Source of the DNA: Pseudomonadota bacterium
GTDB lineage: Bacteria > Desulfobacterota > Desulfobacteria > Desulfobacterales > JBDRRP01
Assembly (NCBI GenBank): GCA_043825735.1
Contig: JBDRRP010000014.1
Location: 1 to 36,923 of the forward strand
Length of the DNA stretch: 36,923 nt
Direction: 5' to 3'
In this document: in pieces, positions 3,525-22,529 of the stretch
Layout: every line of letters begins with the position of its first letter
How positions within the stretch are numbered: position 1 is the stretch's first letter
Notes under the pieces: generated by a model
The model's input: the letters and a program-made list of their open reading frames with translations, nothing else
Databases searched by the model: none
Told to the model about the DNA's origin: nothing
Program-made: the position numbers and the translations under genes

Positions 3525-3655
3525 GATGAATCCGTAAAAAGTCAGGATATCTCGCAAAGCCGCAAAGATCGCAAAGGCAACACAATAATAAAAATTCGGT
3601 TTTTCTTTGCGCGCTTAGCGTCTTTGCAAGAAAATTGCTTTTTTACGGTTTTATC
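3525..3655. repeat. nested inverted-repeat element A (outer IR plus 3x CGCAAAG core)
   Basis: Outer arms GATGAATCCGTAAAAAG / CTTTTTTACGGTTTTATC. Inner arms 3550-3577 TCTCGCAAAGCCGCAAAGATCGCAAAGG / 3604-3631 TCTTTGCGCGCTTAGCGTCTTTGCAAGA (22/28 complementary). AT-rich loop. Confidence 0.85.
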
Positions 3656-3741
3656 GCGTTTTATGGTATTATGCAGGTGCCGGAAGGGAACCAGCCCTTT
3701 CCGGCGGACGCGCCCGGATCGCCAACGGAGGAGGAAAAGCC

Positions 3742-4209
3742 ATGGTCACAGCAAAAGACATCATGACAAGGGACGTGATCACCGCCACGCCCGATATGGA
3801 AATCGTCCAGGCAGCCAGGATACTGCTGGATAAAGGAATCAACGGGATACCGGTCGTCGATGCGACCGGTGGGCTGGTGGGAATCCTGTGCCAGAGCGAT
3901 TTGGTGGCCCAGCAGAAAAAGCTGCCCGTGCCGACCCTGTTTACCTTTCTCGACGGGGTGTTTCAGTTGACCAGCGGCCCGCAGCTGGAAAAACAGGTGA
4001 GAAAAATCGCCGCCCTGTGCGTGGCCGACGCCATGACCCCGGCCCCGGTCACCGTGACGCCCGATACCGGCATTGAAACCATCGCCGCCCTTATGGTGGA
4101 CAGCGGTTTTCACACCATACCGGTAGTGGCGGAGGGTGCCGTGGTGGGGATCATCGGCAAAGAGGACGTTTTGCGAATGCTGCTGCCGGGCGCGGGGGGC
4201 AAAGCGTAG
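3742..4209 (+). CDS. CBS domain-containing protein
   Basis: Two CBS repeats (AKDIMTRDVIT...GIPVVD...LVGILCQSDL; VADAMT...TIPVV...VVGIIGKEDV). Strong SD GGAGGAGG. Confidence 0.9.
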   Translation: MVTAKDIMTRDVITATPDMEIVQAARILLDKGINGIPVVDATGGLVGILCQSDLVAQQKKLPVPTLFTFLDGVFQLTSGPQLEKQVRKIAALCVADAMTPAPVTVTPDTGIETIAALMVDSGFHTIPVVAEGAVVGIIGKEDVLRMLLPGAGGKA

Positions 4210-4266
4210 CACCCGACAGCGGCCGCGGCCGCCATTCCAGGATCCGCGACCACCAGCACCCCATCT

Positions 4267-4941
4267 TCACGGGCGCTGGGCAGCGGCCAGTTCAAGGATT
4301 GCTTCCAGGCCGCCCGGGATGCGCTCTTGGGTATCGGGGAGCGATTCCTCGATATCCATCTGGACAAAATCCCAGCAAAATATATCGACCGCCGCCGGGA
4401 CACCCACCGCGTCACCGTGGCGGGCATCGATGAGGCGTCCGTCACGGAACAGCAGCAGGCCCCGCCCGCCGCTGCGTTTTTCCGTCACCCTCAGGGCGCA
4501 TGATTTTCGCTCCATGCCGATCAACTGGGCCATGGTTTCCAGCGGCACGGCCTGATAAACGCCGCCCTCGCTTTGATCGGCCAGGGCATCGACGATCCGA
4601 GCGGCAAGTTCTCCCACATCGATCGGTTTTTCAATATATCCGACGGCACCGGCAGAAAGCCCTTTTTGCCGGGTGTCCGTTGAATTAAAAGCCGTAATGA
4701 TGACCACGGGAATCTCCGGATACTGGCCTGACATCCGGGCCAATAGCTCGAACCCGTCCATCTCCGGCATCTGCAGATCGGTGACCACCATTGAGATCGT
4801 CTCCCGCGCCAGGATGTCCATCGCCTCGCGCCCGTGTCCCGCCGTAATCAAAGTAAAATCGCCGATATGCTTTTGCACGTAGCGCTGGACGCTCATGCAC
4901 AGAATCGCATCGTCATCAACGAAGAGCACCGTCTTGATCAT
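4267..4941 (-). CDS. response regulator with C-terminal DUF4388/PATAN-like domain
   Basis: Receiver motifs VDDD, TDLQMPEMDG, ITA, EKP. C-terminal LETMAQLIGMERKSCALRV...GLLLFRDGRLIDA...W pattern. Confidence 0.85.
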   Translation of the reverse strand: MIKTVLFVDDDAILCMSVQRYVQKHIGDFTLITAGHGREAMDILARETISMVVTDLQMPEMDGFELLARMSGQYPEIPVVIITAFNSTDTRQKGLSAGAVGYIEKPIDVGELAARIVDALADQSEGGVYQAVPLETMAQLIGMERKSCALRVTEKRSGGRGLLLFRDGRLIDARHGDAVGVPAAVDIFCWDFVQMDIEESLPDTQERIPGGLEAILELAAAQRP

Positions 4942-5040
4942 GTCACCACCTTTGTCCGGATGTGCAGTATCGCTGCCGGCGGATAATAACCGGATTATAG
5001 CCCGCAGTCACATCGCGCCCGCGCCGCCCGGGGCCGTTTC

Positions 5041-5436
5041 TCACTGCGATGCCCTGGTCACCAGCTTCCCGGAGACTTCTTCCAGTCGGTCTGCCAAGCT
5101 GGCCAGGAGTTTTCTCAGCATGGGCGAGAGTTTTCCCAACTCCGACCCCAGCTGATTGGGATCGAAGATGCCCACGGTCACCGCCCCGTCGGCCACCACC
5201 GACGCCGAACGCTGACCGCGTTTGTTCTGGAGAAACACCAGTTCACCGAACACCGCCCCTTCCTTTAAGGTGGCAACGGTCAACATCCCTTTTTCCGTTT
5301 TTTTACGGACTTTTACCCTGCCCTCCAGGACGACGTATATCCAATCGCCATGAGCGCCCTCTTTGACGATCACCCCCTTGTCGGGGTAACTTTCCTCGGT
5401 TTTTACATAACTGTAAATGCGCGGATCCAGGGCCAT
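5041..5436 (-). CDS. stand-alone cyclic nucleotide-binding domain protein (Crp-type, no HTH)
   Basis: IVKEG..GDWIYVVLEGRVKV, GAVFGELVFL, RSASVVA. Start at ATG 5436 with GAGGA SD. Confidence 0.88.
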   Translation of the reverse strand: MALDPRIYSYVKTEESYPDKGVIVKEGAHGDWIYVVLEGRVKVRKKTEKGMLTVATLKEGAVFGELVFLQNKRGQRSASVVADGAVTVGIFDPNQLGSELGKLSPMLRKLLASLADRLEEVSGKLVTRASQ

Positions 5437-5471
5437 GAAGAGTTCCTCAATCAAGTTTGATAGTTAATGGG

Positions 5472-5519
5472 TTCTCTCTGCGTCCTCCGTGGTGATTTCA
5501 GACTTTTTACAGGGTCATC
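5472..5519. repeat. half-element D (right arm only) of the nested inverted-repeat family
   Basis: TTCTCTCTGCGTCCTCCGTGGTGA (core right-arm units) followed by GACTTTTTACAGGGTCATC, which is 16/19 identical to the reverse complement of element A's outer left arm. Confidence 0.7.
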
Positions 5520-5534
5520 GAACTGGTTGCCGGC

Positions 5535-6302
5535 TCAACCGACGATCGCCGAGAGCACCCGCTTGTGGGCATCGGAGAGACCGATGAAAATGCTCCCGAA
5601 CGACAGTGTCTGGTTATCGGGCTGCACCATCGAATTCACCACCGCCATCCGGAAAGTGAAGCGTTTGCCCTTAGGCAGGAAAAAACTGCAGATGAACATG
5701 CTCCCCTTGCCGTGGTGGTGCTGAGCGGCATTTTCTTGTTTCACCTCAATCCGCAGCCCCTCAAGGCTGATATTTCTGATTTTACCCCAGAGCTTGACGG
5801 TTTCCGGGCTATCGGAAGGTCGGTAGAGACAGTCTAAACTCACCTCTTTCCGAAACTCCCGTTCCGGTGTTCCGGCCGTGTCAGCGCCAGTGCCGTGCCC
5901 CGGTTTGTCCTTCTGGGTCGCCAACTCGGCCAGCATCCGGTTCATCTGCTTGAGATGGCTCACCGTCTGGTTGGCAATGTGCCGGATTACGAAGGGCATT
6001 TCGTCGTACTCCTGCTGAATTCGGGAGGGATGCCAGGCGTCCAGCACGGTCTGGGTGACGGCGCGGGCACTGGCCGACCGGGGCTCCTGATCACCGGTCA
6101 TGAAAAGCATCTCCCCGAGGACCTCTCCGGGCCCTATCGTCGCCAGATTGACCTCATCACCGGGAGGCCCGGTAAATACCGTCACTTCCCCTTCGATGAC
6201 CTGATAGATGGATATCCCATAATCTCCGGCCTTGACGATGGTTTCTCCGGGTTCATAGTTCAGGCGGACAACGGGCAGTGTCTTGCTGAGTGATGTGGCC
6301 AT
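5535..6302 (-). CDS. cyclic nucleotide-binding domain plus PilZ-like domain protein
   Basis: N-terminal GETIVKAGD..IYQVIEGEV..GEVLGEM..PRSASARA. C-terminal EREFR...IRNISLEGLRI ([D/N]xSxxG) and FGSIF. Confidence 0.8.
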   Translation of the reverse strand: MATSLSKTLPVVRLNYEPGETIVKAGDYGISIYQVIEGEVTVFTGPPGDEVNLATIGPGEVLGEMLFMTGDQEPRSASARAVTQTVLDAWHPSRIQQEYDEMPFVIRHIANQTVSHLKQMNRMLAELATQKDKPGHGTGADTAGTPEREFRKEVSLDCLYRPSDSPETVKLWGKIRNISLEGLRIEVKQENAAQHHHGKGSMFICSFFLPKGKRFTFRMAVVNSMVQPDNQTLSFGSIFIGLSDAHKRVLSAIVG

Positions 6303-6321
6303 GGCGGGCGCCGCTCCGTTT

Positions 6322-7470
6322 TCAGCGCGCTGCCATTTTGCTGGCCGCGCACTCGTTTTTACCGAGATCCAGGATGTCCTGCTGCTCGTCGTCTACCGTC
6401 ACCAGGCCGGCATTGATTTCCCGGATCTTGGCGTATTCGTCGGGTTGCTTTCGCATGTTGGCCTCGATAAACCTGTAAAATCGGTCCTCGTCAGTGATGC
6501 CATAAATATCGGCGTTGATCTGACGGATTCGGCCGATGGTCTCTGTGAAGGCCAGATTCGCATTGGCCTCTTTCCAGTCCATGTAATGACCGGGAAGGAT
6601 CTGGATGTGCTCATCCATGGGAAGGATGATCTCGGTCATGGTTTTGAAAAGCATCTGTGACCAGGCTTGGGCCATGCCGCCCAGATCCGGACGTCCGATG
6701 GAAAAAATGAACACCGTGTCGCCGGACACCAGAAACCGGTCGTCAATCAGATAGCAGGTGCTACCGGGAGTGTGCCCGGGGGTGTGCATGACCTTCACGG
6801 TCGGTCCCCCACCGGTGAAGGCGAAAATGTCACCGTCCACGGCAGGGGTGTACATAAACTTGGCGCCCTGGAAATCGGGTTCCGGCGCGACGATCTGGGC
6901 GCCGGTGACTTTGCCGAGGGCCGGGCTGCCTGAAATGTAATCAGCCTGCCGGTGGGTCTCGAAGGTGGCGATGATGGCGCATCCCTTCTCATCGGCAAAC
7001 GTCTGGTATTCGGCGATATTTTTGGCCGGATCGAACACCATCATTTCCTTGCCGAAAACCAGTCCGTAGCTGCAAGACGCCTTTCCGGGACGGCGGAACT
7101 GGTAAAGGCCGTAATCCGCTCCGTCGTTGAGCCGGATTGGCGCGAGCATGTTTCCCCATGCCTTTATCCCCTTCATGAGGTAGCCCACGTCGGTATAGCC
7201 GTGGTTTTCAAGGATTTCTCCCACGTATTTGGCTGAGCCTTCCTTGGCGCAGACGATCCGTAGCGTGGCGGCCTTGGGAACGCGCGCCACACTGGCTTCC
7301 TCATGCTCGATGAATTCCATGTAAGGGACGTTGGCCATATTGATGGGATACGGGCCCTCAACCTTGAAACGCCCGAAATCCTCGGCGTTTCGCACATCCA
7401 GCAACAGGAAATCATCCTTTCGAGTCAACCAGGTAAAAAGCTCTTTGGCGCTGTAGGGGGTAACGGCCAT
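6322..7470 (-). CDS. rhodanese + MBL-fold metallo-hydrolase fusion (persulfide dioxygenase/glyoxalase II-like)
   Basis: LLDVRN...CAKEGSA rhodanese domain. MBL motifs THRQADY, HTPGHTPGS, SGDTVF, GRPDLGG, PGH. Start at ATG 7470 with AAAGGAG SD; the ORF track starts at 7581. Confidence 0.88.
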   Translation of the reverse strand: MAVTPYSAKELFTWLTRKDDFLLLDVRNAEDFGRFKVEGPYPINMANVPYMEFIEHEEASVARVPKAATLRIVCAKEGSAKYVGEILENHGYTDVGYLMKGIKAWGNMLAPIRLNDGADYGLYQFRRPGKASCSYGLVFGKEMMVFDPAKNIAEYQTFADEKGCAIIATFETHRQADYISGSPALGKVTGAQIVAPEPDFQGAKFMYTPAVDGDIFAFTGGGPTVKVMHTPGHTPGSTCYLIDDRFLVSGDTVFIFSIGRPDLGGMAQAWSQMLFKTMTEIILPMDEHIQILPGHYMDWKEANANLAFTETIGRIRQINADIYGITDEDRFYRFIEANMRKQPDEYAKIREINAGLVTVDDEQQDILDLGKNECAASKMAAR

Positions 7471-7689
7471 GACATCTCCTTTCGCATCCCGTTTCTGTGA
7501 GATGGGATCATTTGGCGGGCTGGGAGTCAAAAAATTGCCACCGTGGCGCCGACTATGGGCAGCTATGGCGGCAACCTCCAAATGGGAATTTTCTCCCCGC
7601 GATTATGAACTAAAAAGTCAGTTAAATGCAACCGTTTGCCGCTCATCGGTTTCATTTTCTTTCCATAGGCCGCTACAGGGCATCAGGGA

Positions 7690-7705
7690 TGGCCCGGATA
7701 CTGCA
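7690..7705 (+). promoter_or_regulatory. sigma54 (-24/-12) promoter
   Basis: TGGCCCGGATACTGCA has exact GG-N10-GC spacing, about 70 nt upstream of the ATG at 7777. Confidence 0.65.
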
Positions 7706-7776
7706 TTAAATCCATGCAAAGCATTCTAACGGCCGGAGGAATGGTTGATGACCTCACCCACGACAAGGAGGACGCC

Positions 7777-8007
7777 ATGATTCAGGAAGGACTCTTCGAC
7801 GAGTTGATTTTTGATGAGCACGCCGATGAAATGCTGCTGCGGCAGATTTACGGCGTCACCCCTGTCCAGATCCGCATGATGAAAATGGGGCTGCGTTTCG
7901 GATACGTCTCCCGGCAGGACGTTTTGTCATATCTGAAAACACCGCGCAGGGGGCTTGAGAGGGTCTATCGGAAACGCATCATGCTGACAAGATCGCCAGC
8001 CGCCTGA
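7777..8007 (+). CDS. hypothetical small protein (76 aa)
   Basis: Strong SD AAGGAGG 5 nt before the ATG, sigma54 motif upstream, protein-like composition. No family recognised. Confidence 0.7.
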   Translation: MIQEGLFDELIFDEHADEMLLRQIYGVTPVQIRMMKMGLRFGYVSRQDVLSYLKTPRRGLERVYRKRIMLTRSPAA

Positions 8008-8144
8008 CAGCGGCGTATCCGCCGGGGCGGCGCCTCTTGAGGGGCGTTTCACTCCCCTCAGGCAAACGCCCTTACTCAAAAAACCGGCTTGGATTCTTAT
8101 CGCCTTAACTGAGACCAATCCATTCGATCCAACCGAGCGTGCTC

Positions 8145-8246
8145 TCAGGCCTGGATGGTGACGGCGCCCACCCGCTGCCCGTTGATCATCACTTCCATCA
8201 ATAACCCGCCGTTCTCGTAGCGTCCAGTGATGTGCAAGGGTGTCAC
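8145..8246 (-). CDS. putative 33-aa small protein MTPLHITGRYENGGLLMEVMINGQRVGAVTIQA
   Basis: Below the ORF-track cutoff. GTG start preceded by AAAGGAAGG, GC3-rich codons. Confidence 0.4.
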   Translation of the reverse strand: MTPLHITGRYENGGLLMEVMINGQRVGAVTIQA

Positions 8247-8525
8247 GACGCCGCCTTCCTTTTTCTGAAGGAAACACACGGATACTGTCAAACGGTAACT
8301 CCGCAGTGCGCCGCTGCGGTGCGTTATGGGGTTGATCCCTGTGCCGGTTGCCGCTAAAAGAGAAATAGTCTTTTACGGTCAATTGAACAGGTGCCGCGGA
8401 GGCCCTTTATTCGGCCTCGTCTTTCCCTGATGAACGCTCTGAGCACCCGGCCGCTGCAGTGTGATCGGACCCGGCGCAAAGAAATGGCTGCATCCTGTGC
8501 TCCCTCAGTCAAGAAAGGCGCAAAA

Positions 8526-9947
8526 ATGATTGTCCCGGTTATTCTGGCAGGCGGCTCCGGCACCCGATTGTGGCCGCTGTCGCGGTCGCTGCACCCCAAA
8601 CAGCTGCTCCGACTCGTTGACTCCCAGACCATGCTCCAGAACACACTGCTTCGCCTCAAGGACCTGCCGTCGGTCCACCCCCCCATTGTCATCTGCAACG
8701 AAACCCACCGTTTCATGGTGGCCGAACAGCTTCGGGAGATCGAGATGCCGGCGGCCATGATCATTCTCGAACCCGTAGGTCGCAACACGGCACCTGCTGC
8801 GGCCGTGGCCGCTCTGACGGCACTAACACTGCTCAAGGACCCGATGATGCTGGTGCTGCCGGCGGATCACCACATCGGAGACCTGCCGTTGTTCCGCAAG
8901 ACGCTTCTGGCCGGAGGTGCGTTGGCCCGCAAGCGGTATCTTGTTACCTTCGGTATCGCACCCACCGCGCCGGAAACCGGCTACGGTTACATCCAGAAAG
9001 GGGCCCCGATCAGCGATTATCTTGACGGGGCAAGCGGCCCTGAAGCCGCTGTCATCAGACGATTTGTTGAAAAACCAGACGTCGATACCGCCCGGCGCTA
9101 CGTGGCTTGCGGTGAATACCGCTGGAACAGTGGCATGTTCATGTTCACCGCCGACCGCTACCTGGAAGAATTGCAAAAATTCGCCCCGGCCATGGCGGCC
9201 GCCTGCCAGAGGGCTTTTGCTAACGGACGCATCGATCTCGATTTTTTCAGACTTGCCGCTCCGGACTTTGACGCCTGCCCGGCGGATTCCATCGACTACA
9301 GCGTCATGGAAAAAACCGACTCCGGGGCCATGATCACATTCACGGCAGGCTGGAATGACGTGGGTTCCTGGGAAGCCTTATGGCAGATCGGACACAAAAA
9401 TGCCGACCAAAACATCACTCGCGGTGACGTGTTGACCCATGATGTGCGCCACTCCTACCTCAACGCCACTTCTCGGCTGATTGCCGCCGTGGGCCTCAAC
9501 CACCACGTTGTGGTGGAGACTCCCGATGCGGTGATGATCGCGCCGCGCGACCGCGTGCAGGACGTTAAAGCACTGGTGGAAGCCCTGAAAAAGAACGATC
9601 GCCCTGAAACCAGCGCTCACCGTAAAACCTTTCGCCCCTGGGGGTGGACGGACCGACTCATCGACACACCCCATTACCGGGTCAACCACGTACGCATCCA
9701 CGCCGGCATGCGCATGTCTTTGCAAAAACATTTGAAGCGCGCCGAGCATTGGGTGGTCGTCAAGGGAACGGTCCGGGTCACCAACAACGGCGAGACAGTT
9801 GATCTGAAAGAAGACGAATCCACCTACATCCACAGCGGGACGGTTCACCGTCTGGAAAACCCGGGGCCAGCGGAGCTGGAGATGATCGAGGTGCAAACCG
9901 GCCGTGACATCGATGACGCCGACATCGTGCGGTTGGATGTTCCTTAA
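8526..9947 (+). CDS. manC: mannose-1-phosphate guanylyltransferase / mannose-6-phosphate isomerase
   Basis: PVILAGGSGTRLWPLSR..PKQ, EPVGRNTAPA, PETGYGYI, FVEKP, WNSGMF, SIDY, WNDVGSW. C-terminal cupin (RPWG, SLQKH, AEHWVVV, HRLEN, EVQTG). Confidence 0.95.
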   Translation: MIVPVILAGGSGTRLWPLSRSLHPKQLLRLVDSQTMLQNTLLRLKDLPSVHPPIVICNETHRFMVAEQLREIEMPAAMIILEPVGRNTAPAAAVAALTALTLLKDPMMLVLPADHHIGDLPLFRKTLLAGGALARKRYLVTFGIAPTAPETGYGYIQKGAPISDYLDGASGPEAAVIRRFVEKPDVDTARRYVACGEYRWNSGMFMFTADRYLEELQKFAPAMAAACQRAFANGRIDLDFFRLAAPDFDACPADSIDYSVMEKTDSGAMITFTAGWNDVGSWEALWQIGHKNADQNITRGDVLTHDVRHSYLNATSRLIAAVGLNHHVVVETPDAVMIAPRDRVQDVKALVEALKKNDRPETSAHRKTFRPWGWTDRLIDTPHYRVNHVRIHAGMRMSLQKHLKRAEHWVVVKGTVRVTNNGETVDLKEDESTYIHSGTVHRLENPGPAELEMIEVQTGRDIDDADIVRLDVP

Positions 9948-9952
9948 GCGAT

Positions 9953-10879
9953 CTATCCGGCCGCCTGCAGCCAGAAGGAAAACGTCAGCGCCGACATGAG
10001 CGTGCACACCGAGATGGCCCCCACGGCAAAATTTTCATCACCGCCGATTTCTCTGGCCATGACATAGGTGAGGGTCGCCGTGGGAGAGGCCAGCAGAATC
10101 AACGCCGGCAGATAGAGCGCCGGGGGCATCTCAAGGTAGCGAAAGATGCCGAACCCGATGCCGGGCAAAATGAGCAGTTTGACGACCGAGGCCGCTGCGA
10201 CACCGGACAGGGCCGTGCGCAGCTGCCCGAAATTGAGCGATGCGCCGATGAGCACTAGCGCCAGCGGCAGCGCCATGCTGCTGAGGATGCCCAGCGTGCG
10301 GGAGACCACCACGGGCAAAGTCAGCCCCGCCACGGAAAAACCGATGCCGGCCAGCGAGGATAGAATGACGGGGTTCATCGCGATGTGCAGAAAGGTCTTT
10401 TTGATCGACAGCCCGCGGCCTGAGCGGCGCGGGGCGTAAACCTGAAGGACCGTGACCGCCAGCAGGTTCTGCAAAATCATAATGAAGCCGGCCAGGATAC
10501 CGGCCTGGGCAAAACCCTTTTCCCCAAGGTAGTAATAAGCCACCGCCAGCCCGATATACCCCAGGTTGCCGTGGAAGCCGCACTGGACAAACGTGCCGAT
10601 CTGAAACCGTCTCAGGGGCAGGCGCAAAGCGCCAACCCATGTCAGTACAAAGGTCAGAAGAATGCTGGCAAGTGTCGCGACGAGAACGAGCGGATCGAAA
10701 CGCGCGCTGAAATCGGCCGTTGAGATGGCGCTGAAGATCATTGCCGGGATGGCCAGATGATAGACCAGCCGGTTGGCCGGTCCCAGAAAATCGGGCGGCA
10801 CGAGCCCCTTGCGGTGAACCAGCCAGCCCAAGAAAATGACGGAAAAAATGGGAACGATTGTGGAGAAGACGACTGTCAT
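9953..10879 (-). CDS. AEC (auxin efflux carrier/malate permease) family transporter
   Basis: About 10 TM segments, NRLVYHLAIPA, GNLGYIGL, NPVI, PLALVLIG, VKLLILP, SPTA. Start at ATG 10879. Confidence 0.9.
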   Translation of the reverse strand: MTVVFSTIVPIFSVIFLGWLVHRKGLVPPDFLGPANRLVYHLAIPAMIFSAISTADFSARFDPLVLVATLASILLTFVLTWVGALRLPLRRFQIGTFVQCGFHGNLGYIGLAVAYYYLGEKGFAQAGILAGFIMILQNLLAVTVLQVYAPRRSGRGLSIKKTFLHIAMNPVILSSLAGIGFSVAGLTLPVVVSRTLGILSSMALPLALVLIGASLNFGQLRTALSGVAAASVVKLLILPGIGFGIFRYLEMPPALYLPALILLASPTATLTYVMAREIGGDENFAVGAISVCTLMSALTFSFWLQAAG

Positions 10880-12955: not shown

Positions 12956-12980
12956 AATCGTTTTACCCTTTCCTGATATA

Positions 12981-13084
12981 CGCTTATTCAGAAAGCGCCA
13001 GTTGATCTTTCCCCAACGCGATGTTGAACCAGTCACGGAGGACACCGGTCTTTGACGCAAACTGGAGCTTCATAGACCAGCGGA
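12981..13084 (-). mobile_element. element E: internally deleted, inverted copy of element C (MITE/REPIN-like)
   Basis: Reverse complement TCTATGAAGCTCCAGTTTGCGTCAAAGACCGGTG-TCCTCCGTGAC-TGGTTCAACATC...GGGGAAAGA..ACTGGCGCTTTCTGAATAAGCG aligns with both ends of 22334-22529. Repeat status is seen directly; mobility is inferred. Confidence 0.8.
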
Positions 13085-13117: not shown

Positions 13118-13162
13118 ATTATGTCGCTTTGAGCTTCATGGTCAAACGCCAAACCGACCGTC
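13118..13162 (-). promoter_or_regulatory. candidate internal sigma70 promoter for the activase plus operator half-site
   Basis: TTGACC-N16-CATAAT on the minus strand (13145-13118). Adjacent 12-mer AAACCGACCGTC (13151-13162) is the exact reverse complement of 18952-18963 in the operon promoter. Confidence 0.45.
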
Positions 13163-14579
13163 ATCCCGGCTCCGGCATCTCGGACGCCCGGTCAACCGGC
13201 AGCAGCGGTTTGTATAAGAATATGGCGATAATGCCGGCCACGTACATGATCAGTCCGAACAGGCCCGAGGTGACGAACATGGAACTGTAGAAGTCGCCCA
13301 TGGCATCTTGCATCAGCAGTGCGATGGTCATGGCCAGGGCGCTGTTGCGCAGTCCGGTCTCCAGGGAAATCGCCCGCGTCTGATAGTTGCTGATGTTGAT
13401 CATTTTGGAAAACACAATGCCGAACATCATCCCCAGAAAGGTCAACGCAAAGACGGCGGTGTAAAACTTGAAGCCATAGCGGGCCGTATCCTTGAACACG
13501 TGGATATTGCTCAGGACCCCGGCGACAATCAGCGCCAGCAGGGCGATGATCCCCAGCGCTGAAAAAATGGGGGTGGCTTTGCCCGCGAACCGGGGCCATC
13601 TGCCCCTTACCGACATCCCGAGGATCAAAGGAATGATGACCAGGACCATGATCGTCTGGACCACGGTCTTCACGGGGATGTTCACTTCGGGCATATTGGC
13701 GCAATACAGGGCCAGCAGCAATGGCGTGAAGACAATTGAAAGAACCGTTGAAAAAGAAGTCAGTGAAATGGAAAGCGCCAGATCCCCCTTGGCATAATAG
13801 GTCATGAGGTTGGAGGTCACGCCACCCGGGATGGCAGTGATCAGAATCATACCGACAAAAATGAACGGGTATTGCTGATAAAATCCGAGCAGGTGCCCCA
13901 TGGCCATGGCCAGAAATGGCATGAAGCCGAATTGGAGAATTTCTCCGAGTATGATGCCGCGGGGTTTTGTGAACACCAGGGCAAAATCCTTGAAAGTGAG
14001 CGTCAGCCCCATGCCGACCATGACGAAGAACAGCATGAGGATGATGCTGGATTTAAAGATCCGGTCGAGGCTCGGTTGAACGGGCGGATCGATCAAACGG
14101 GCAAAATGGTAGTCGACCCCGTCGATGGTTTCCATGGCAAGACTGACATGGAAGACCAGTTTGTTTTCGAACTTCCCGTCGAGCCCGGCATACGGCGAGC
14201 CGGACCCTGCCACCAGGGATTCGGGCTCTTGGGGAAGACTCAGGATGTGAATGCTTCCGGTCAACGCACGCAGCAGATAGACCACATCTCGATCCAAGTT
14301 GTCGCCGCCGGGAGCGGCCCTGATGATCCGCAGATGACCGGAGAACGTCTTTTCCTCCGCACGGGACCAGTCCAGCAGACGGGCGGCGGTGTTTAGCTTT
14401 TCGAAAAAAGATCCATCGCCTTTTCCGGCAGCCACCTGTGACAGGCGCTCGTAGAGCGCGGCATCGGCGTCGACGGCGGCCCTCACCGTAGGCGCCGGAA
14501 AAAAACAAAGCCCCGCGGCAACAAAGACCACCGCCACGGCGCCCACCCATCGTTTGATCACCGATCTGCTTTCAGGCAT
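13161..14579 (-). CDS. bile acid:sodium symporter (BASS/SBF) family transporter with N-terminal signal peptide and extra soluble domain
   Basis: MVGMGLTL..DF, QFGFMP, PGGVTSNLMTYYAKGDLALSISLT, SLETGLRNSALA. About 170-aa N-terminal extension. Start at ATG 14579 (GAGGAAGGA SD). Confidence 0.88.
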   Translation of the reverse strand: MPESRSVIKRWVGAVAVVFVAAGLCFFPAPTVRAAVDADAALYERLSQVAAGKGDGSFFEKLNTAARLLDWSRAEEKTFSGHLRIIRAAPGGDNLDRDVVYLLRALTGSIHILSLPQEPESLVAGSGSPYAGLDGKFENKLVFHVSLAMETIDGVDYHFARLIDPPVQPSLDRIFKSSIILMLFFVMVGMGLTLTFKDFALVFTKPRGIILGEILQFGFMPFLAMAMGHLLGFYQQYPFIFVGMILITAIPGGVTSNLMTYYAKGDLALSISLTSFSTVLSIVFTPLLLALYCANMPEVNIPVKTVVQTIMVLVIIPLILGMSVRGRWPRFAGKATPIFSALGIIALLALIVAGVLSNIHVFKDTARYGFKFYTAVFALTFLGMMFGIVFSKMINISNYQTRAISLETGLRNSALAMTIALLMQDAMGDFYSSMFVTSGLFGLIMYVAGIIAIFLYKPLLPVDRASEMPEPG

Positions 14580-14678
14580 CCTGGTTCCTTCCTCGATTTT
14601 GTCCGAAAAATAAATGTTCCCGCTCATCAGTGCAGACAACTGTGATCTCTTATTCAGCGGCCATCTGCATCTCCGGCG

Positions 14679-15946: not shown

Positions 15947-17068
15947 TCACATCATTTCGATAAAGGCCTCGATCCGCGTGCGCAGTTGTCCGCCGGTGGC
16001 GCCCCCTTCTTCCAGTTCAAGCAGGAGGCTGGGAATGCCGGCACCCTCGAGCATCGCCTTGATGTAGGGGATGTCGAACCCGTGGGGATCACAGAATTTG
16101 AGCACCACGAATATGACCCCCCGTGCGCCGGTATCGTGCACACACTCAAGCAGCGCCTCGCCGCGGGTGCGATTGCCGGCATGCTTTGCCGGGCACACCA
16201 GGCGTTCGGCGTAGCGCAGGGCGATATTGGCGATGAGATCGCCCTCAGAATCGATAGTGCCCTCAAAACCGCGCACGCCGGTGCACAGATCATCCCACAC
16301 CACCCTGCCGCCGGCGGCTTCTACGACGCCGTAGAGATCGGGCAGGTTGCACACGCCGCCGCTGAGCACGACCGGGGCCAGGGCTTTGCCGGCAGCCGGG
16401 CGCGGCAGGGCGTCGATATCCGCCAACAGGGCTGTGAGGTCCTCTAAATACGCATCGCGCGCCATCACCATGCCCGCCTTGATCACCGCGTGCAGGTCAC
16501 TGCCGGGAAGGGCCGCCGGGTTGGTGAGACGCACCGCGTACAACCGGCGGACCGCCGAACGGATCTGGTTGAGCGTGTCGATGGCAGCCCTCAGACGCTC
16601 GTCCGTAAGGCGGACACCCAATGCCGTTTCCAACGTGCCGGCAAAGGCACGAAACACGTCCACCGTATACGCCCTTGAACTGTCGGTGTTGAGCTTGGCC
16701 GGCAGTACGACGTCGGCATGGAAGGCGACACCGGCGTTGAGCCGCCAGATGTCCGAAAGGCGCTGGATGGAATCGCAGGTGTGGGGAAAGACCGTGCCGT
16801 CGAGGAAATCAAGCCGCCCGCTCAGGACATCTTCCAGGGCGCTGCGAACGAGCGAACAGCTGTAGGCCTGCAGGTGGGCATCGGCCCGATCGATGGGTGC
16901 GCCGGATCCGAACAGCCGGATTCCCAATGCGCCCGCCGCAAGGATGATCTCCTCAGGGGCGTAGCTGCAGAAGGTCCCGATCACCGGCCGGCCGGTTTTC
17001 GCCTTCCATGACCGGGTGTAGGTGTAAGGGTCTGCCGCAATGGCCTTCAGCCGCGCGATAACCGTCAT
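15947..17068 (-). CDS. 2-hydroxyacyl-CoA dehydratase family subunit, beta-like (HadC/FldC/BcrC-like)
   Basis: SYAPEEIILAAG, YSCSLVRS, FPHTCDS, DDLCTG, KFCDPH, QLRTRIEAFIEM. Confidence 0.9.
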   Translation of the reverse strand: MTVIARLKAIAADPYTYTRSWKAKTGRPVIGTFCSYAPEEIILAAGALGIRLFGSGAPIDRADAHLQAYSCSLVRSALEDVLSGRLDFLDGTVFPHTCDSIQRLSDIWRLNAGVAFHADVVLPAKLNTDSSRAYTVDVFRAFAGTLETALGVRLTDERLRAAIDTLNQIRSAVRRLYAVRLTNPAALPGSDLHAVIKAGMVMARDAYLEDLTALLADIDALPRPAAGKALAPVVLSGGVCNLPDLYGVVEAAGGRVVWDDLCTGVRGFEGTIDSEGDLIANIALRYAERLVCPAKHAGNRTRGEALLECVHDTGARGVIFVVLKFCDPHGFDIPYIKAMLEGAGIPSLLLELEEGGATGGQLRTRIEAFIEMM

Positions 17069-17134
17069 AACAACATCCTTTCGTGGGGCGCTCCGGCAGC
17101 GGCCGTCCCCCCCCCCGTTGCAGTGGTGTGCGCC

Positions 17135-18856
17135 TCAGTCGCCGGAAGGCGCTGTGCCGGTTTCCTTCAGCCGCGCGATTTCTTCTTCCACCAATACGTT
17201 ATAAGCCACCTTTCCCACAAGGGTCAGAGGAAGCGTTTTGCGAAATTCGATTTCCCGCGGACAACTCCACTTGATGAGGTCTGCCCGACAATAGTCAATG
17301 AGGATGCGTTCCATGTCTGGGCCGGCCTTGGCAGGGTCCTTCAAGACGACAAACGCCTTCACCCGCTCCACCTGAACCTCGTCCGGCACGCCGATGACGC
17401 AGGCATCCCGCACTTCGGGATGCGTGTAGAGGCGCTCTTCCACCTGGACGGGATAAACGTTCATTCCCGAAGACTTTATCATTCGCTTCAGACGCATCTT
17501 ATAGTAGAAAAATCCATCGGCATCCATGGTGCCAATGTCTCCGGTGTGCAGCCAGAGCCGCCCATCGGCGTGTGCTTTCAACGTTGCGGCCGTTTCCTCC
17601 GGCTGATCCAGGTACCCCAACATCACGGCAGGCCCGCTGATGCAGATCTCGCCCTCCTCGCCGACCGCGGCCTCATCGATAGTGCCCATGCGAACGATTT
17701 TGGCCAGCATGTCCGGAAATGGAATGCCGATGCTGCCTTCCCGGTATTCCTTCATGGGCATGGCCATAATGGCGGTGACCGCCTCGGTGAGCCCGAAGCC
17801 TTCGCGCAACTGAATATCGCCGCCGCCCTCGCGAACCACCGCCTCGAAGCGCTCCTTGATGGCGCGCGGCAGGGTATCGGCGCCGCAAAAGGCCGCTTTC
17901 AGACATCCGAGCGCCGCTTTCTGAAATACGGCGTTGCCCGACAGGGCCTGAAACAGTGTCGGAACGCCCACAATGAAGTTGGGGCGCTTGCGGCGAATCA
18001 GGCGTGCCACCAACTCGGGGGTGAACTGGGGCACCAGGATGCTTTTGGCACCGCCCATGAACGCGGCATTGATACACACGCCCAGACCGAAACCGTGGAA
18101 AATAGGCAAAATGGCGAGAATGGCGTCCCCCTGGGTGAGCCCGCCCCAGGCGGCCACCATCTTGCCCTCGCTGATGAAGTTCCGGTTGGAGAGCATGATC
18201 CCCTTGGGTTTGCCCGTAGTGCCGCCACTGTACATGATAACGGCCAGATCCCGGGTGCCCATGGAAGATTCCGGCGCCGGCGTGCCGGGGGCCTGCATCA
18301 GGTTTTTCCACCAGTATACCATGGGGTCATCCGGCACGGCTGGAATCTTTCTCCCTTTTGTCACATAGAATCCGAGACGTTTGACAGGCCCCAGGTAATC
18401 GGGAATCCGGCAAAGCACCAGCTTCTCCAGCGGACTCTCGTCCTTGACGGCCGCGAACTTTGCATAAAACGCATCGAGAGTGAGCGCCATCCGGCTGTCG
18501 CTTAGATTCAGGTAAAAGGCGATTTCCGATGCCGTCGACAGCGGGTGAATCATGCTGGCGACGGCCCCCAGACGATTGGCGGCGTAAAAGGCGATAACGC
18601 TATGGGGACTGGTTGGCATGGCAATGGTAATGCGATCACCCGGCCGCAGTCCGAGCGCAGACAATGCGCCGGCGCACCGCTCGATGTCGCCCAGCAGCTG
18701 CCGGTAGGTGGCTGCGGTTCCCAGAAAGTCATAGGCCACCGCGTCCGGGTAGCGTTCAGCGGTCTCCTTGAGGACCTCGAAAAGTGTCTTTTCCGGGTAC
18801 TGCAGATGTGCGGGCACATCGCCGTAATAGCGCAGCCACGGTGCTCCTTCCGCCAT
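17135..18856 (-). CDS. long-chain-fatty-acid--CoA ligase-like AMP-binding enzyme
   Basis: YSGGTTGKPKG, LPIFHGFG, EGFGLTE, GEICISGP.VMLGY, WLHTGDIG, R.KRMIKSSGMNVYP, LP.TLVGK. Confidence 0.93.
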   Translation of the reverse strand: MAEGAPWLRYYGDVPAHLQYPEKTLFEVLKETAERYPDAVAYDFLGTAATYRQLLGDIERCAGALSALGLRPGDRITIAMPTSPHSVIAFYAANRLGAVASMIHPLSTASEIAFYLNLSDSRMALTLDAFYAKFAAVKDESPLEKLVLCRIPDYLGPVKRLGFYVTKGRKIPAVPDDPMVYWWKNLMQAPGTPAPESSMGTRDLAVIMYSGGTTGKPKGIMLSNRNFISEGKMVAAWGGLTQGDAILAILPIFHGFGLGVCINAAFMGGAKSILVPQFTPELVARLIRRKRPNFIVGVPTLFQALSGNAVFQKAALGCLKAAFCGADTLPRAIKERFEAVVREGGGDIQLREGFGLTEAVTAIMAMPMKEYREGSIGIPFPDMLAKIVRMGTIDEAAVGEEGEICISGPAVMLGYLDQPEETAATLKAHADGRLWLHTGDIGTMDADGFFYYKMRLKRMIKSSGMNVYPVQVEERLYTHPEVRDACVIGVPDEVQVERVKAFVVLKDPAKAGPDMERILIDYCRADLIKWSCPREIEFRKTLPLTLVGKVAYNVLVEEEIARLKETGTAPSGD

Positions 18857-18939
18857 TGCCCCTCCCCTTTTCGTCGATGAGAATCATTCAGCCGCACCAG
18901 GTGATCATGAATCACAATGCAGGACAGTGTCCACCGGTT

Positions 18940-18968
18940 CTTATACCGAACGACGGTCGGTTTATCAA
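18940..18968 (-). promoter_or_regulatory. sigma70 promoter of the CoA-ligase operon with a palindromic operator in its spacer
   Basis: TTGATA-N17-TATAAG. Imperfect palindrome ACCGAACG-A-CGGTCGGT at 18945-18961. Confidence 0.65.
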
Positions 18969-18976
18969 CCATTGGT

Positions 18977-19005
18977 TTTACATGAAATACGGCCTGTGTT
19001 ATAGT
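18977..19005 (+). promoter_or_regulatory. sigma70 promoter of the divergent TetR gene
   Basis: TTTACA-N17-TATAGT with an extended -10 TG. Confidence 0.65.
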
Positions 19006-19041
19006 CGTCAATCATAGCGCACCGGCACCGGGACATCGCCA

Positions 19042-19680
19042 ATGACGACCAACGATACCTTGAGTCAATTGAAGGAAAAGGAACGGGAAGTTCGGCGGGG
19101 ATTGATTATCGACGCTGCACGCACCCTATTCGGCATCAGGACCTACGACGCCGTTAGCATGGCGGAAATCGCCCGTACTGCCGGTATTGCAAAGTCCTCC
19201 ATCTACACCTATTTTCCCAGCCAGGAAGCGCTGTTTGTCGAAGTTGTGGCCAGGGATTCCGAGCGATGTATTCTGAAGATGGCGGAAACCATCCGCATTG
19301 GCGGGCAGCGTGCACTACCGCACGTGATTCACTATTTTCTGGACTATTATTTCGACAACGAGGCCGAGTGGCGGATGATCACCCGGTTTGCCCTTCACGG
19401 CGACATCAGCACCGCAGCCTCTCAGCGGCTGGATCTTGTGGCCCGCCGGCTGATGGATCTTCTGGAGCAGGCGGTAACCTCGGCAGCACCGGGACACACC
19501 GAGGCAAGACTCCTGTCGCATACGCTGTTTTCCGCGCTGAGCGGGATTCTCATCTCTTTTCGAAAATACCCGGGTCGCAGTGAAACGGCGCGTCGCCAGC
19601 ATATCAAGCGCATCGGCGAAACCGTTGAACGGATCCTCATGACGTATCTCTGCGGCCCGTCTCAAGACGAGGCCCCCTAA
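19042..19680 (+). CDS. TetR/AcrR family transcriptional regulator
   Basis: IIDAARTLF...VSMAEIARTAGIAKSSIYTYFPSQEALF HTH. Confidence 0.93.
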   Translation: MTTNDTLSQLKEKEREVRRGLIIDAARTLFGIRTYDAVSMAEIARTAGIAKSSIYTYFPSQEALFVEVVARDSERCILKMAETIRIGGQRALPHVIHYFLDYYFDNEAEWRMITRFALHGDISTAASQRLDLVARRLMDLLEQAVTSAAPGHTEARLLSHTLFSALSGILISFRKYPGRSETARRQHIKRIGETVERILMTYLCGPSQDEAP

Positions 19681-19731
19681 TCTACCATGTCGGTAGTGAA
19701 ATTCTTACAGGCTGCCTAAAAAAAAAATGAC

Positions 19732-19891
19732 TCGCGCGGAGACGCAGAGACGCTGAGAACTACTAAATCTGAAACACGAAGAAACATTTTTCGCACAGCG
19801 GTTACTGCGGTTACGGACGCTTCTTGCCAGCAACTGTGATTTTAACGGTTTTCATCCTGATATTTCTCTGCGTCTCTGCGCCTCTGCGCGA
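19732..19891. repeat. nested inverted-repeat element B (3x CGCAGAG core)
   Basis: TCGCGCGGAGACGCAGAGACGCTGAGAA (19732-19759) / TTCTCTGCGTCTCTGCGCCTCTGCGCGA (19864-19891), 25/28 complementary, 104-nt loop. Confidence 0.88.
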
Positions 19892-19904
19892 AAACGGTTT
19901 TTGG

Positions 19905-19932
19905 TTGCTGTGGTTCCGGATTGGGATATAAT
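19905..19932 (+). promoter_or_regulatory. candidate sigma70 promoter for the CMD gene
   Basis: TTGCTG-N16-TATAAT immediately downstream of element B. Confidence 0.45.
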
Positions 19933-19974
19933 TCATCGGACAAAAAACCTCATCACAAGGAAGGTTAAAACGGC

Positions 19975-20376
19975 ATGCACGAAGACGAACTCAGAAAACG
20001 CACACGGGAAACAGCGGCGCTGTACTTCAACGGCGTGTCGGGCGAAACGCCCTTTACCCTGTGGAAAGCATTTGATCCGGATCTGGCAAGGGATATGTCC
20101 CTGTTTATCACCGGCAGCATGTATGCCCGTCAAAAGCTGCCCCACCCCACCCGACAGTTGATAACGGTGGCGGCCCTCACAGTGCTTGGGAAAACAGAGG
20201 AGCTCAATCTTCACCTGCAGGCGGCACTCAACGTGGGTTGCAGCCCGGAAGAGCTTGCCGAGACCATTTTCCAAACCCTGGTTTACGGCGGCGTGCCCGC
20301 CGCCAACGCAGCCCTGAAAACCCTGCGTGATGTGCTGATTGAACGCGGCATGTGGCCTCTTGATGCGGGCGCCTGA
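19975..20376 (+). CDS. carboxymuconolactone decarboxylase (CMD/AhpD) family protein
   Basis: G.MYAR..L...TRQLITVAAL...ELNLHLQAALNVGCSPEELAE...YGGVPAA. No CxxC. AAGGAAGG SD. Confidence 0.9.
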   Translation: MHEDELRKRTRETAALYFNGVSGETPFTLWKAFDPDLARDMSLFITGSMYARQKLPHPTRQLITVAALTVLGKTEELNLHLQAALNVGCSPEELAETIFQTLVYGGVPAANAALKTLRDVLIERGMWPLDAGA

Positions 20377-20378
20377 CA

Positions 20379-20404
20379 GGCCGTCGGTACCGAGACCGAC
20401 GGCC
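20379..20404. terminator. GC-rich hairpin between convergent genes (possible terminator/REP)
   Basis: GGCCGTCGGT-ACCGAG-ACCGACGGCC perfect 10-bp stem. No U-tract. Confidence 0.45.
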
Positions 20405-20457
20405 GTCCGATGAATATTACGGCATTGGCTGCATCAGCCACACCGCTGGCAGGGTTG

Positions 20458-21021
20458 TCACGACACAAACGGGTTTTCCTTTGCGATCACCGCAGCCACT
20501 CTGGCAACGTGCCTGCCATGGTGCTGCGCTGCTTCGAGACTTTCTTCGGCCACCCCGGTCTGCTCAAGGTTGACGCCGGCCGAACGGCCGTAGGGTCCCC
20601 ATTGGAGCCCTCCCACAGCATAACCGGGGGTGCTCTTGGGAAGGGGAACGAAGACCATGCCAAGCTCTACGAAGTTATTGATCAGCGAAAGCATGGTCAG
20701 TTCCGCGCCACCACCGGCATTGCCGAAACCGCTGCCGGTCGCAAAGACGGCAGCCACTTTCCCCACCATCTTATTTTCCATCCACAACCCGCCGCAAACC
20801 GTGTCGATAAACTTCTTGATGCGCCAGTCCATGGCGCCCATGTGCACCGGTGTACCGGCAATCACCGCGTCAGCGGCAAGCATGTCTTCGGCAGTAACCG
20901 CTTCCGCGGCTTTTACCGTGACCTTCGCCCCGTCGACAGATGAGGCTCCAGCCATGACAGCGTCCGCCATTTTTTTGGTGTTCCCGTAATCGCTGGCATA
21001 GATGATCAAAATATTACTCAT
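20458..21021 (-). CDS. flavodoxin-fold NAD(P)H-dependent oxidoreductase (WrbA-like)
   Basis: ILIIYASDYGNTKKMA, GTPVHMG, KKFID, GKVAAVFATG..GGGAELT, WGPY. Confidence 0.9.
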   Translation of the reverse strand: MSNILIIYASDYGNTKKMADAVMAGASSVDGAKVTVKAAEAVTAEDMLAADAVIAGTPVHMGAMDWRIKKFIDTVCGGLWMENKMVGKVAAVFATGSGFGNAGGGAELTMLSLINNFVELGMVFVPLPKSTPGYAVGGLQWGPYGRSAGVNLEQTGVAEESLEAAQHHGRHVARVAAVIAKENPFVS

Positions 21022-21239
21022 AACGCCTCCTTAGATCCTGTTAAATTTGTTCCCATTGCAGTCGCGGTCCCAAGTTTCTTGAGCAATCTTCCCAGGCAAT
21101 CCAGCTCCCGGGAGTCAAGAACTGAAAAAAGCGCGGCCGCTTCGCTGGCATGATGCGGAAAAACCCTTTTGATTATGGTCAAAGTAGGCGCCGTTCCCAG
21201 CGCTGTCAATACATGAGAGACCGGCTCGGATGTGTCCAT
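21018..21239 (-). pseudogene. probable 5'-truncated MarR-family regulator remnant
   Basis: LTALG...IIKRVFPHH...LFSVLDSRELDCLGRLLKKLG resembles the MarR C-terminal helices. No winged HTH. Stop overlaps the flavodoxin ATG (ATGA). Confidence 0.55.
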
Positions 21240-21252
21240 CCACCGGCATTAA

Positions 21253-21278
21253 CCGCTGACGGCTGAAGCCGTCGGCGG
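21253..21278. repeat. REP/IS200-IS605-end-like hairpin
   Basis: CCGCTGACGGC-TGAA-GCCGTCGGCGG, 11-bp stem with one G-U. GTCGGCGGGT recurs at 21339-21348. Confidence 0.45.
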
Positions 21279-21383
21279 GTGGTTTCCGTTGTGGGTAAGC
21301 CTTCTGGAGTGGCGCGTGTGGGGCGCTATTTCGAAACGGTCGGCGGGTTTGCTTTCGCGGTGGAACCGGTGGTGCTCATTTCA

Positions 21384-21445
21384 GATAAAAAAGGGGTCGC
21401 CGCTAGTTCACGCGGTCGCAAGACCAGCGGCGATCGGCCCTTATC
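21384..21445 (-). terminator. probable intrinsic terminator after fliW
   Basis: Minus strand TCGCCGCTGGT...ACTAGCGGCGA-CCCC-TTTTTT directly after the stop codon. Confidence 0.6.
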
Positions 21446-21447
21446 GG

Positions 21448-21978
21448 CTAAAGCGCTTTAATGCCCACCTGCATCATCGCCAAAAACCGCAGGTAGTCTT
21501 CCCGAGCCTTTTCAGGATCACCGTCTTTTTCCGAGACGGCGCTGACAGTGGCACTGCACTGAACACCGGGCAGCTCTTTGTAAAGCCCCTTTCTGGTCTT
21601 GGGGTTCACGACCACCGGATGGGTAATATGGGGGATGAACTTGGGGTCAAACTGGCGGCGATGGGGGTGATCACGGTTTTCCGAAATAAACAAGAGGGTA
21701 ATCGCCTCCGAGAATTCACCGAGACCGAGAGCGCGCATTTCCGATGCCGACAGAAGCGTATCATCGTAGGAAATTCCGAATTTCTGTGCGAAAGAAACGG
21801 TAAACGCAATATCCGGATCATCGATGGACTGTAAAAAATAAAAAACCGGCACTTCGTTTTCCTCGGGCAATAGTGCATACCGGCCGTGGTTGTCGAACCC
21901 GGGAAGTCCATCAATAAAAGTGATCACGGTGTTCTCATCAATATCGCGTACTCCAAAATGAGCCGTCTGAATTTTCAC
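21448..21978 (-). CDS. fliW: flagellar assembly factor FliW-like protein
   Basis: MKIQT.HFG...ID...VITF..GLPGF, FYFLQSIDDPDIAF, PVVVN..TRKG. GTG start with AGGAGG SD. Confidence 0.8.
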   Translation of the reverse strand: MKIQTAHFGVRDIDENTVITFIDGLPGFDNHGRYALLPEENEVPVFYFLQSIDDPDIAFTVSFAQKFGISYDDTLLSASEMRALGLGEFSEAITLLFISENRDHPHRRQFDPKFIPHITHPVVVNPKTRKGLYKELPGVQCSATVSAVSEKDGDPEKAREDYLRFLAMMQVGIKAL

Positions 21979-22333
21979 AATCCCTCCTATCTTTATTCTG
22001 TTACGACCGATACCGCATGCAATCTGTTTTAGGTCAACCGTTGGCGGATGTCATTTCTTTGGCGCATTCTGGTAGAATCAACCGCGCCATTGATCGCCAT
22101 TGCGGCTTTAGGGGCGTTTTTTGCATACAATTTCTGACGGTTATCGTCAGTCGTAAAAAACCGGCCGCCATCCGCAACAAGAATATGCATTTAATACGCC
22201 AAATATGAAATTATTATCATTTGCGGCCGAACCCTGCCGCCACGGCACCCAGGGGGGGAATTTCCAGACACCACCACTCAATGAGCGCCTTTGAAGATCA
22301 CGGCATGAACAAATGGGGCTGAAAAAAATAGAA

Positions 22334-22529
22334 TCCGCTTCTCTATGAAGCTCCAGTTGTGCGTCAAAGACCGGTGCTCCCGATAACATTGTGATCACCA
22401 CGGAGTCACGGAGGGCACGGAGAAACGCAAAAAGTGTTGATTTTAATTATGAACTCTCCGTGTCCTCCGTGACTCCGTGGTTCAACATCACTGTGGGGGA
22501 AAGACCCACTGGCGCTTTCTGCATAAGCG
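22334..22529 (+). mobile_element. element C: full-length ~195-nt nested hairpin element (3x CACGGAG core), MITE/REPIN-like
   Basis: Core arms 22397-22423 / 22455-22481 are 26/27 complementary. Outer arms AAGCTCCAGT / ACTGGCGCTT are 9/10. A second copy lies at 12981-13084. Mobility is inferred. Confidence 0.85.

Follow-up and report, generated by a model that had tools for sequence, protein, structure and literature searches.

The window analysed here, a stretch of 36,923 nucleotides, is contig C14 (JBDRRP010000014.1) of a 6.8-Mb, 160-contig genome (G000; GC content 57.5%) from the order Desulfobacterales, and the subject of this work is a set of five repeat elements, A to E, each located in the window between ordinary genes. 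An initial annotation, made from the sequence alone, had described them as nested hairpins with cores of tandem heptamer units in interchangeable outer shells, and all five were found where it had placed them. Here, a shell denotes a pair of terminal inverted repeats (TIRs) of the kind that ends an insertion sequence (IS) or a MITE (from miniature inverted-repeat transposable elements), and a core denotes the inner hairpin with its two inverted arms.

3525..3655, plus strand: element A, a 131-bp IS1182-type MITE with a CGCAAAG hairpin (TIR 3525-3542, arm 3553-3576, AT-rich loop, arm 3605-3628, TIR 3638-3655).
5459..5519, minus strand: element D, a shell-A MITE that is truncated and, by alignment with the consensus, belongs to the CACAGAG/CGCAGAG family; it keeps a single TIR (5502-5519), a partial arm (5476-5491), some of the loop and, of the second TIR, only the final few bases.
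12979..13084, minus strand: element E, a C-family MITE of IS1595 type; its TIRs (12979-13001 and 13062-13084) match the TIR profile.
19732..19891, plus strand: element B, a CGCAGAG hairpin (arms 19735-19757 and 19866-19888, 108-nt interior).
22334..22531, plus strand: element C, a 198-bp IS1595-type MITE with a CACGGAG hairpin (TIRs 22334-22356 and 22509-22531, arms 22399-22422 and 22456-22479).
22326..22333 (plus strand) and 22532-22539: left and right copies of the 8-bp target duplication of element C, with 7/8 bases identical.
22538..22570, minus strand: a terminator-like hairpin following rplQ (22604-23143, minus strand), where the ribosomal operon ends.

The complete elements A, B, and C folded into strong hairpins, as had been proposed (z = -5.0, -6.5, and -8.4 against shuffled sequences, with 0/200 shuffles as good). 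Element A aligned end to end with the consensus of a 28-copy family; its flanking hexamers match at 4/6 bases, and it is therefore considered an older copy. No target duplication was found at D, where 2/6 bases match. In 32 of 34 copies of the shell-A family to which D belongs, the first unit reads CACAGAG, which makes the CACGGAG unit of D a one-base variant. Element E had been listed as an element sharing the unit of C in its own right; pairwise alignment with C showed it instead to be a C-family copy that lost its left arm and loop by an internal deletion at a short microhomology, and no target duplication is visible around it (2/8 bases match). Element C, used as a query, gave 26 matches covering at least 70% of its length (itself included), the other copies having 73–90% identity; it was inserted immediately beyond the terminator-like hairpin of rplQ. 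Element B belongs to a family of about six full copies, and no IS-type TIR was found around it, a search for a third shell returning 25 motif matches and 0 pairs; B is thus a bare core without IS ends. In line with the initial annotation, no transposase gene was found in the window, either among the 17 open reading frames scanned or among three more, and the remaining genes were assigned by eye to the ribosomal operon.

The only congener, G001, is syntenic with this region and lacks all five elements, which confirms the expected presence/absence difference between relatives, at an identity (67–79% in aligned blocks) too low for insertion junctions to be read. A is absent from its orthologous site there, no element lies between the genes corresponding to those around D, and a hairpin similar to the rplQ terminator is present without C. 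With the same arm pattern, G001 has two arms and the genome studied here 667. Two gene differences adjoin the elements: the syntenic G001 region lacks, together with E, the bile-acid:sodium symporter-like gene next to it (window 13161-14639), as well as the acyl-CoA ligase and TetR genes next to B (window 17135-19680); each of the two elements borders such a gain or loss of genes on one side.

The shell of A and D recurs genome-wide as 101 TIR pairs less than 4 kb apart, 70 of which span 120–140 bp. Their 6-bp flanks are exact repeats in 40% of the copies vs. 2% when permuted (n = 90, z = 21), with an AANNTT-like target, and duplications were also found at 13 of 30 copies sampled from other genomes. 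The same TIR bounds a 1885-bp element (G000:C38:677-2561) encoding the domains DUF772, DDE_Tnp_1, and DDE_Tnp_1_6. Across the order, it was found at both ends of 12 out of 30 loci with an IS1182 hit, seven of the 12 having exact 6–8-bp duplications; as two of these spans take in a neighbouring MITE, the count becomes 6/10. One TIR-bearing locus (L273, G091:C79) exceeds the cut-off of the NF033551 model with 363 bits, while most others remain below it. Shell A/D therefore represents gene-less MITEs of an IS1182-like family, mostly 120–140 bp long, which generate a 6-bp duplication; with a genome pattern that fixes the element length, it was present in 53 of the 151 genomes of the order. Shell-A MITEs often directly abut one another or a parent IS, with one target hexamer in common (L289, L291; G000:C121:57190, C51:852), an arrangement that suggests repeated insertion at existing ends. 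A GTAC-centred hairpin is a very common shell-A interior elsewhere (L252, L246, L255, L267; G122, G136, G074, G043); these copies rarely have a 6-bp duplication in their flanks and may be a distinct family.

The shell of C and E occurs as 23 TIR pairs, with a flank identity at 8 bp of 0.65 vs. 0.35 (n = 21, z ~10) and exact repeats in 14%. Members of the IS1595 family produce an AT-rich target duplication of about 8 bp. In two other genomes (G042 and G012) the shell-C TIR bounds an IS1595 transposase: at L042 the TIRs are 1071 bp apart and the protein scores 173.5 bits against an NF033547 cut-off of 75, L038 being similar, and no target duplication is visible around L042 or L038. The genome itself has two IS1595 relatives, one (C152) with a C-type right end and the other (C145), which is intact, with an exact 8-bp duplication. 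Shell C/E thus consists of gene-less MITEs of IS1595 with a duplication of about 8 bp. The point missed by the initial annotation is that both shells are ordinary MITE ends, IS1182-like and IS1595, with target duplications. Two further observations concern IS1595-type sequences. In the IS1595 element at G000:C152:70760-71935, a coreless shell-A MITE of 101 bp (G000:C152:70995-71095) interrupts the transposase gene, and in some IS1595-type shells the interior consists of a 6-nt unit (ATCGNN) repeated in inverted arrays (G000:C159:26000-26294, C37:42687-42971, C22:63066-63380), the four-unit version of this pattern occurring 148 times in the genome vs. 0 when read backwards.

Triple CRCRRAG arms were counted 576 times in the genome vs. 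0 in Markov controls of order 2, 5, and 7, in agreement with the prediction of a copy number above composition-matched chance, and double arms 1013 times vs. 4–13. A slightly wider pattern returned 1075 arms, split evenly between the orientations (538 and 537), and 255 of the 365 adjacent left-right arm pairs form an inverted hairpin with a loop of 20–60 nt. The arms use five main heptamer words with a unit spacing of 9/9, 8/9, or 8/8, are preceded by TCAC, GAAC, or CTCG, and consist of tandem, non-palindromic units. Nearly all cores are intergenic (285/287, the other two overlapping a gene end or a spurious open reading frame), with little gene-orientation bias. An IS TIR lies within 110 nt of 163 of the 287 cores vs. 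15 of 1064 shifted positions: 76 hairpins have both TIRs, 87 have one, and 124 have none. Triples ending in T, C, and A also occur genome-wide (50, 31, and 26, vs. 648 ending in G). In another genome, same-strand arm runs with periods of 65 nt and 114/122 nt (G146:C1:199162-199379 and 445585-446665) resemble the array form of bacterial interspersed mosaic elements (BIMEs).

The claim that the two arms co-vary applies to the heptamer word, as the heptamer class is equal in both arms of 249 out of 267 hairpins, against a mean of 96 and a maximum of 119 after shuffling, and fails for the 2-nt spacers, the pairing of which stays at shuffle level in CACGAAG hairpins (0.13 vs. 0.16, n = 38) as well as in filled cassettes (0.47 vs. 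0.47, n = 19). Heptamers pair across the hairpin in 99.5% of cases and are near-invariant across phyla. Contrary to the proposal that geometry rather than sequence is conserved, it is sequence that is conserved in the cores, not RNA geometry. This pattern of heptamer and spacer pairing would fit inverted binding sites in which the stem is a by-product.

Shells and cores are modular, as judged from G-ending arms, the only ones scored inside shells. Among the 101 shell-A pairs, 51 hold CACAGAG/CGCAGAG cores and 35 CGCAAAG cores (86/101 with CRCnRAG units), while the remainder, sorted by eye, comprises 12 hairpins of CGTC/SRM type and three interiors with nothing recognisable. Shell-C interiors are CACGGAG hairpins, CACGAAG hairpins, a CGCAGAG hairpin nested in a decayed CACGGAG hairpin, or the 6-nt-unit arrays, and C-type MITEs are also found within the loops of A-type cores. 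In the 30 shell-A copies sampled from other genomes, eight interiors were of SRM type, one had GTAG only, three were GTAC-centred, one carried GxxExxY-type arms, and 17 were untagged, some of the latter clearly coreless. The interchangeability of shells and cores thus holds genome-wide on other copies, but not in the example first offered, a core swap between D and C, given the one-base variant in D. Identical composites of 131–133 bp were found at separate loci, each with its own 6–7-bp duplication, so that shell and core travel as one unit; as judged from these copies, the composites were evidently transposed as such. The same copies speak indirectly for the suggestion that the elements, which are non-autonomous, are probably moved in trans; related transposase genes are present elsewhere in the genome.

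The cores in turn resemble the flanks of a gene family. The initial annotation had suggested that similar arms bracket GxxExxY genes (PF13366), and this was confirmed for seven of the seven PF13366 genes of the genome: each lies between tandem arms in inverted orientation, and the words vary from gene to gene; one of them (G000:C27:14581-14961) has the CACGGAG arms of element C. From the 80 closest relatives of that gene in named genomes (Planctomycetota, Verrucomicrobiota, Pseudomonadota, Chloroflexota, Nitrospirota, and others), 74 have full flanks, and 61 of these carry arms on both sides vs. 0/61 shifted windows, most using CACGAAG; arms of opposite orientation on both sides occur in only 8/74. 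When 101 loci (80 from the order, seven from this genome, and 14 picked from the named-genome relatives) were tested without a preset motif, 77 had an inverted repeat spanning the gene vs. 2/101 in the null. On a tree of 101 proteins, the G-ending words fall into one clade (SH-aLRT support 99, 56 rows) with two G-ending rows outside it, the C-, T-, and A-ending words cluster elsewhere, and the arm-word label changes 39 times vs. 68.7 when shuffled. By these comparisons, the arms of the cores are evidently those of GxxExxY cassettes in gene-less form. The C27-type protein has 126 amino acids and exceeds the cut-offs of both TIGR04256 and PF13366. Residues E30, D70, E80, K82, and Q94 are invariant in 95/95 sequences, a QxxxY motif is present, and the predicted structure (predicted local distance difference test, pLDDT, 95.8) has its best matches in Cas4, lambda-type exonucleases, and restriction folds, most of the top-scoring structures being PD-(D/E)XK folds; the GxxExxY protein is thus predicted to be a PD-(D/E)XK fold with intact catalytic residues.

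Other gene cassettes with such arms were also observed. The three full-length genes examined from a four-helix-bundle family, which the initial annotation had likewise associated with such arms, are all bracketed by inverted tandem arms, but these are made of other 7–9-nt words, and the genes form a parallel cassette type.

G000:C15:27860-28220: four-helix-bundle cassette (PF05635).
G000:C151:12240-12600: four-helix-bundle cassette (PF05635).
G000:C152:24530-24895: four-helix-bundle cassette (PF05635).

A housekeeping region at G000:C27:13800-17700 (gatC-gatA-mutL by eye) holds two GxxExxY cassettes side by side with two gene-less hairpins, and another two GxxExxY cassettes lie with a four-helix-bundle cassette among sugar-nucleotide/polysaccharide genes (by eye) at G000:C151:8000-12600.

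We interpret the nested hairpins as two selfish elements stacked, a MITE outside and a GxxExxY-type hairpin inside, with a probability of roughly 0.8. On the outside, DDE transposases would move the shells in trans, together with any sequence between the ends as cargo. The inner layer consists of two inverted arms, each with 2–3 heptamers (CRCnRAG) placed every 8–9 nt. A GxxExxY protein could bind the phased heptamers and nick or cut nearby, as Ssn does at its own repeats, and would in this way seed further intergenic sites with arms, leaving no target duplication. Once inside a MITE, an arm pair was amplified with it as a composite by transposition, as the identical composites at separate loci show. 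That the GxxExxY protein binds, cuts, and seeds arms at new sites seems to us slightly favoured over its opposite, and the spread of bare cores by the nuclease is likewise an inference.

Several results weigh against this interpretation. Elements A, D, and E lack a clean target duplication. The transposase of the C38 element scores 201.7 bits against a cut-off of 270 for NCBIfam IS1182, which is still its best NCBIfam match, and the flanks of this element match at 3/6 positions; moreover, the TIR of the C145 element has diverged from shell C, and for these reasons the mobilising enzymes are candidates only. No target duplication at a fixed offset was found around bare cores (n = 124; n = 53 when unclustered) or filled cassettes (n = 13), and in a test with variable offsets the positive control reached a z of 7.9 vs. 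at most 5.4 for bare cores, the top signal of which consists of conserved bases beside the arms. The protein tree is a quick one (128 columns, 45/98 branches open), and as arms and gene are co-inherited, its concordance with the words reflects a lasting pairing and does not prove recognition. The link between gene and arms is supported over 150 genomes, a strong PF13366 match being present in 29 of the 33 with at least 20 arms vs. 45 of the 117 others, but this association is inflated by non-independent kin genomes and leaves four of the 33 arm-rich genomes without such a match. The abundant words CACGAAG and CGCAAAG are found on no GxxExxY gene in this 160-contig assembly, which argues against a strict one-enzyme-one-word rule, and the structural matches reach only middling scores (Z up to 7.5; Foldseek E 0.007 at best).

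The alternative that survives best, although we regard it as unlikely, is that the IS transposases alone spread everything, bare cores being MITEs with decayed ends and GxxExxY taking no part in the spread here. Shells do decay, as the 87 cores that keep a single TIR show, several CACGAAG flank clusters retain remnants of an IS1595-type end, and the two most arm-rich words are those without a cognate gene in this genome. However, five genomes (G015, G097, G146, G047, and G094) have 213–570 arms with 0 shell-A and 0 shell-C matches under strict patterns, 53 cores have unique flanks, the arms bracket the GxxExxY gene across phyla, and arm number tracks that gene. Still less probable is a structured RNA, i.e., hairpins selected as RNase III sites or mRNA stabilisers, comparable to the intervening sequences of 23S rRNA; the initial annotation had considered an RNA-structural system as well. 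The strong folds of A, B, and C, the intergenic position of the cores at a median of 57–73 nt from a stop codon, their location between tandem genes in 184 of 267 occupied gaps, and the similar arms at PF05635 ('23S rRNA IVP') genes would agree with such a role, but the tandem-gap share (69%) is near the background of 66% (1807/2753), and the spacers show no covariation, in contrast to the fixed heptamers. In addition, a scan of Rfam (window 1-23500, E up to 1) returned only five weak plant and animal microRNA hairpin matches, far below gathering scores, the shell ends and duplications are features of DNA transposons, and G001 lacks all five elements despite synteny. It is highly improbable that the cores are repetitive extragenic palindromes (REPs) or their inverted doublets (REPINs) spread by a Y1 transposase of the REP-associated (RAYT) type, since, despite a similar layout (an inverted, intergenic doublet in the accessible text of PMC3116915) and eight Y1_Tnp matches in the genome, CRCnRAG arms occur within 220 nt of 0/8 Y1 genes (by eye, some near contig ends), which largely refutes such a mobiliser, and the arms are neither self-palindromic nor accompanied by the GTAG/CGTC tags described in the parts of PMC3733652 available to us.

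How a core comes to sit in an IS1182-like shell is approached through a site resembling that of the integration host factor (IHF), for which a general consensus was used, relaxed at one position for offset counts. This IHF-like site lies at offset 27–28 in 7/11 parent IS 5′ ends, the position at which an arm starts in 131 of 143 shell-A MITE ends, and at 53–54 in 55 of the 65 site-bearing MITEs (80 MITEs in total), these being copies that share descent and not independent events. From this shift in offset, the loop of the shell-A core looks IS-derived, with arms added beside the site. The strict consensus was not enriched in the loops of bare cores (13/101 vs. 7.4 expected), no SRM loop matched it with up to one mismatch (0/9), and SRM hairpins appear, by eye, in the same shell-A slot. 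A broader scenario, to be treated as speculative, is that GxxExxY may join RAYT and Ssn as a third type of enzyme dedicated to repeats, which reads clade-specific heptamer words and writes arms into new sites; arms would have been put at nucleotide 28 of an IS end, before the IHF-like site, and hairpins would act as builders of efficient MITEs instead of passive cargo, their spacers centring a bend between the transposase ends.

The outer layer is ordinary transposon biology, whereas the inner layer is an apparently undescribed pairing of repeat and nuclease. For PF13366/GxxExxY (PDDEXK_3), the function is listed as unknown, with many transfers, in the accessible part of PMC3424549, which makes no mention there of flanking repeats, and heptamer arms are likewise not mentioned in the portions available of 10.1101/2021.01.26.428298, PMC3281130, PMC12306157, and PMC5704561. 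The literature searched, which did not extend to ISfinder, most subscription journals, or supplements, held no description of the arms or of these MITEs. For this widespread orphan family, the core layer offers a concrete substrate candidate as well as a table of clades and their words, testable with oligonucleotides as for Ssn, and, if true, it would amount to a natural library of 126-amino-acid sequence-specific nucleases. One pair of IS ends holding unrelated hairpins in the same position also offers a case for the birth of MITEs and for how REP-like repeats reach hundreds of copies.

Compared with known systems, the shells fall into the MITE class that includes the Correia/NEMIS elements: they are short, gene-less, intergenic, and multicopy, have IS-type TIRs and a duplication of fixed length, fold into a long stem-loop, and differ in presence between relatives. 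Correia elements possess an IHF site according to the accessible text of PMC3184786, similar to the IHF-like site in the middle of shell A; here, however, the shell interiors are mostly the hairpins of another repeat system (86/101 CRCnRAG). With REP/REPIN-RAYT systems, as far as these are covered in the available parts of PMC3116915, PMC3733652, and PMC2817692, the cores have in common an inverted doublet with a spacer, an extragenic location, high copy number, gene-less copies that outnumber the gene-flanking ones, and nested mosaic clusters, but they consist of tandem heptamers, have no HUH/Y1 link and no GTAG/CGTC tag, and are accompanied by several diverged GxxExxY genes per genome, each with its own word. 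Ssn, in contrast, is a GIY-YIG nuclease with proven cleavage, and each SRM is its own hairpin of 20–50 nt (PMC11893778, accessible text). In this genome, none of the four small GIY-YIG genes is flanked by the arms or by an SRM repeat, and no Ssn gene for the SRM hairpins was found among them. The likeness to Ssn/SRM, within the same portion of PMC11893778, is a small single-domain nuclease gene with a repeat on both sides, hundreds of gene-less copies, and matching variants; the difference is a predicted PD-(D/E)XK protein and arms of phased heptamers that pair only with the opposite arm. The core is therefore a member of neither system, and Ssn/SRM is the closest working model for it, followed by REPIN/RAYT.

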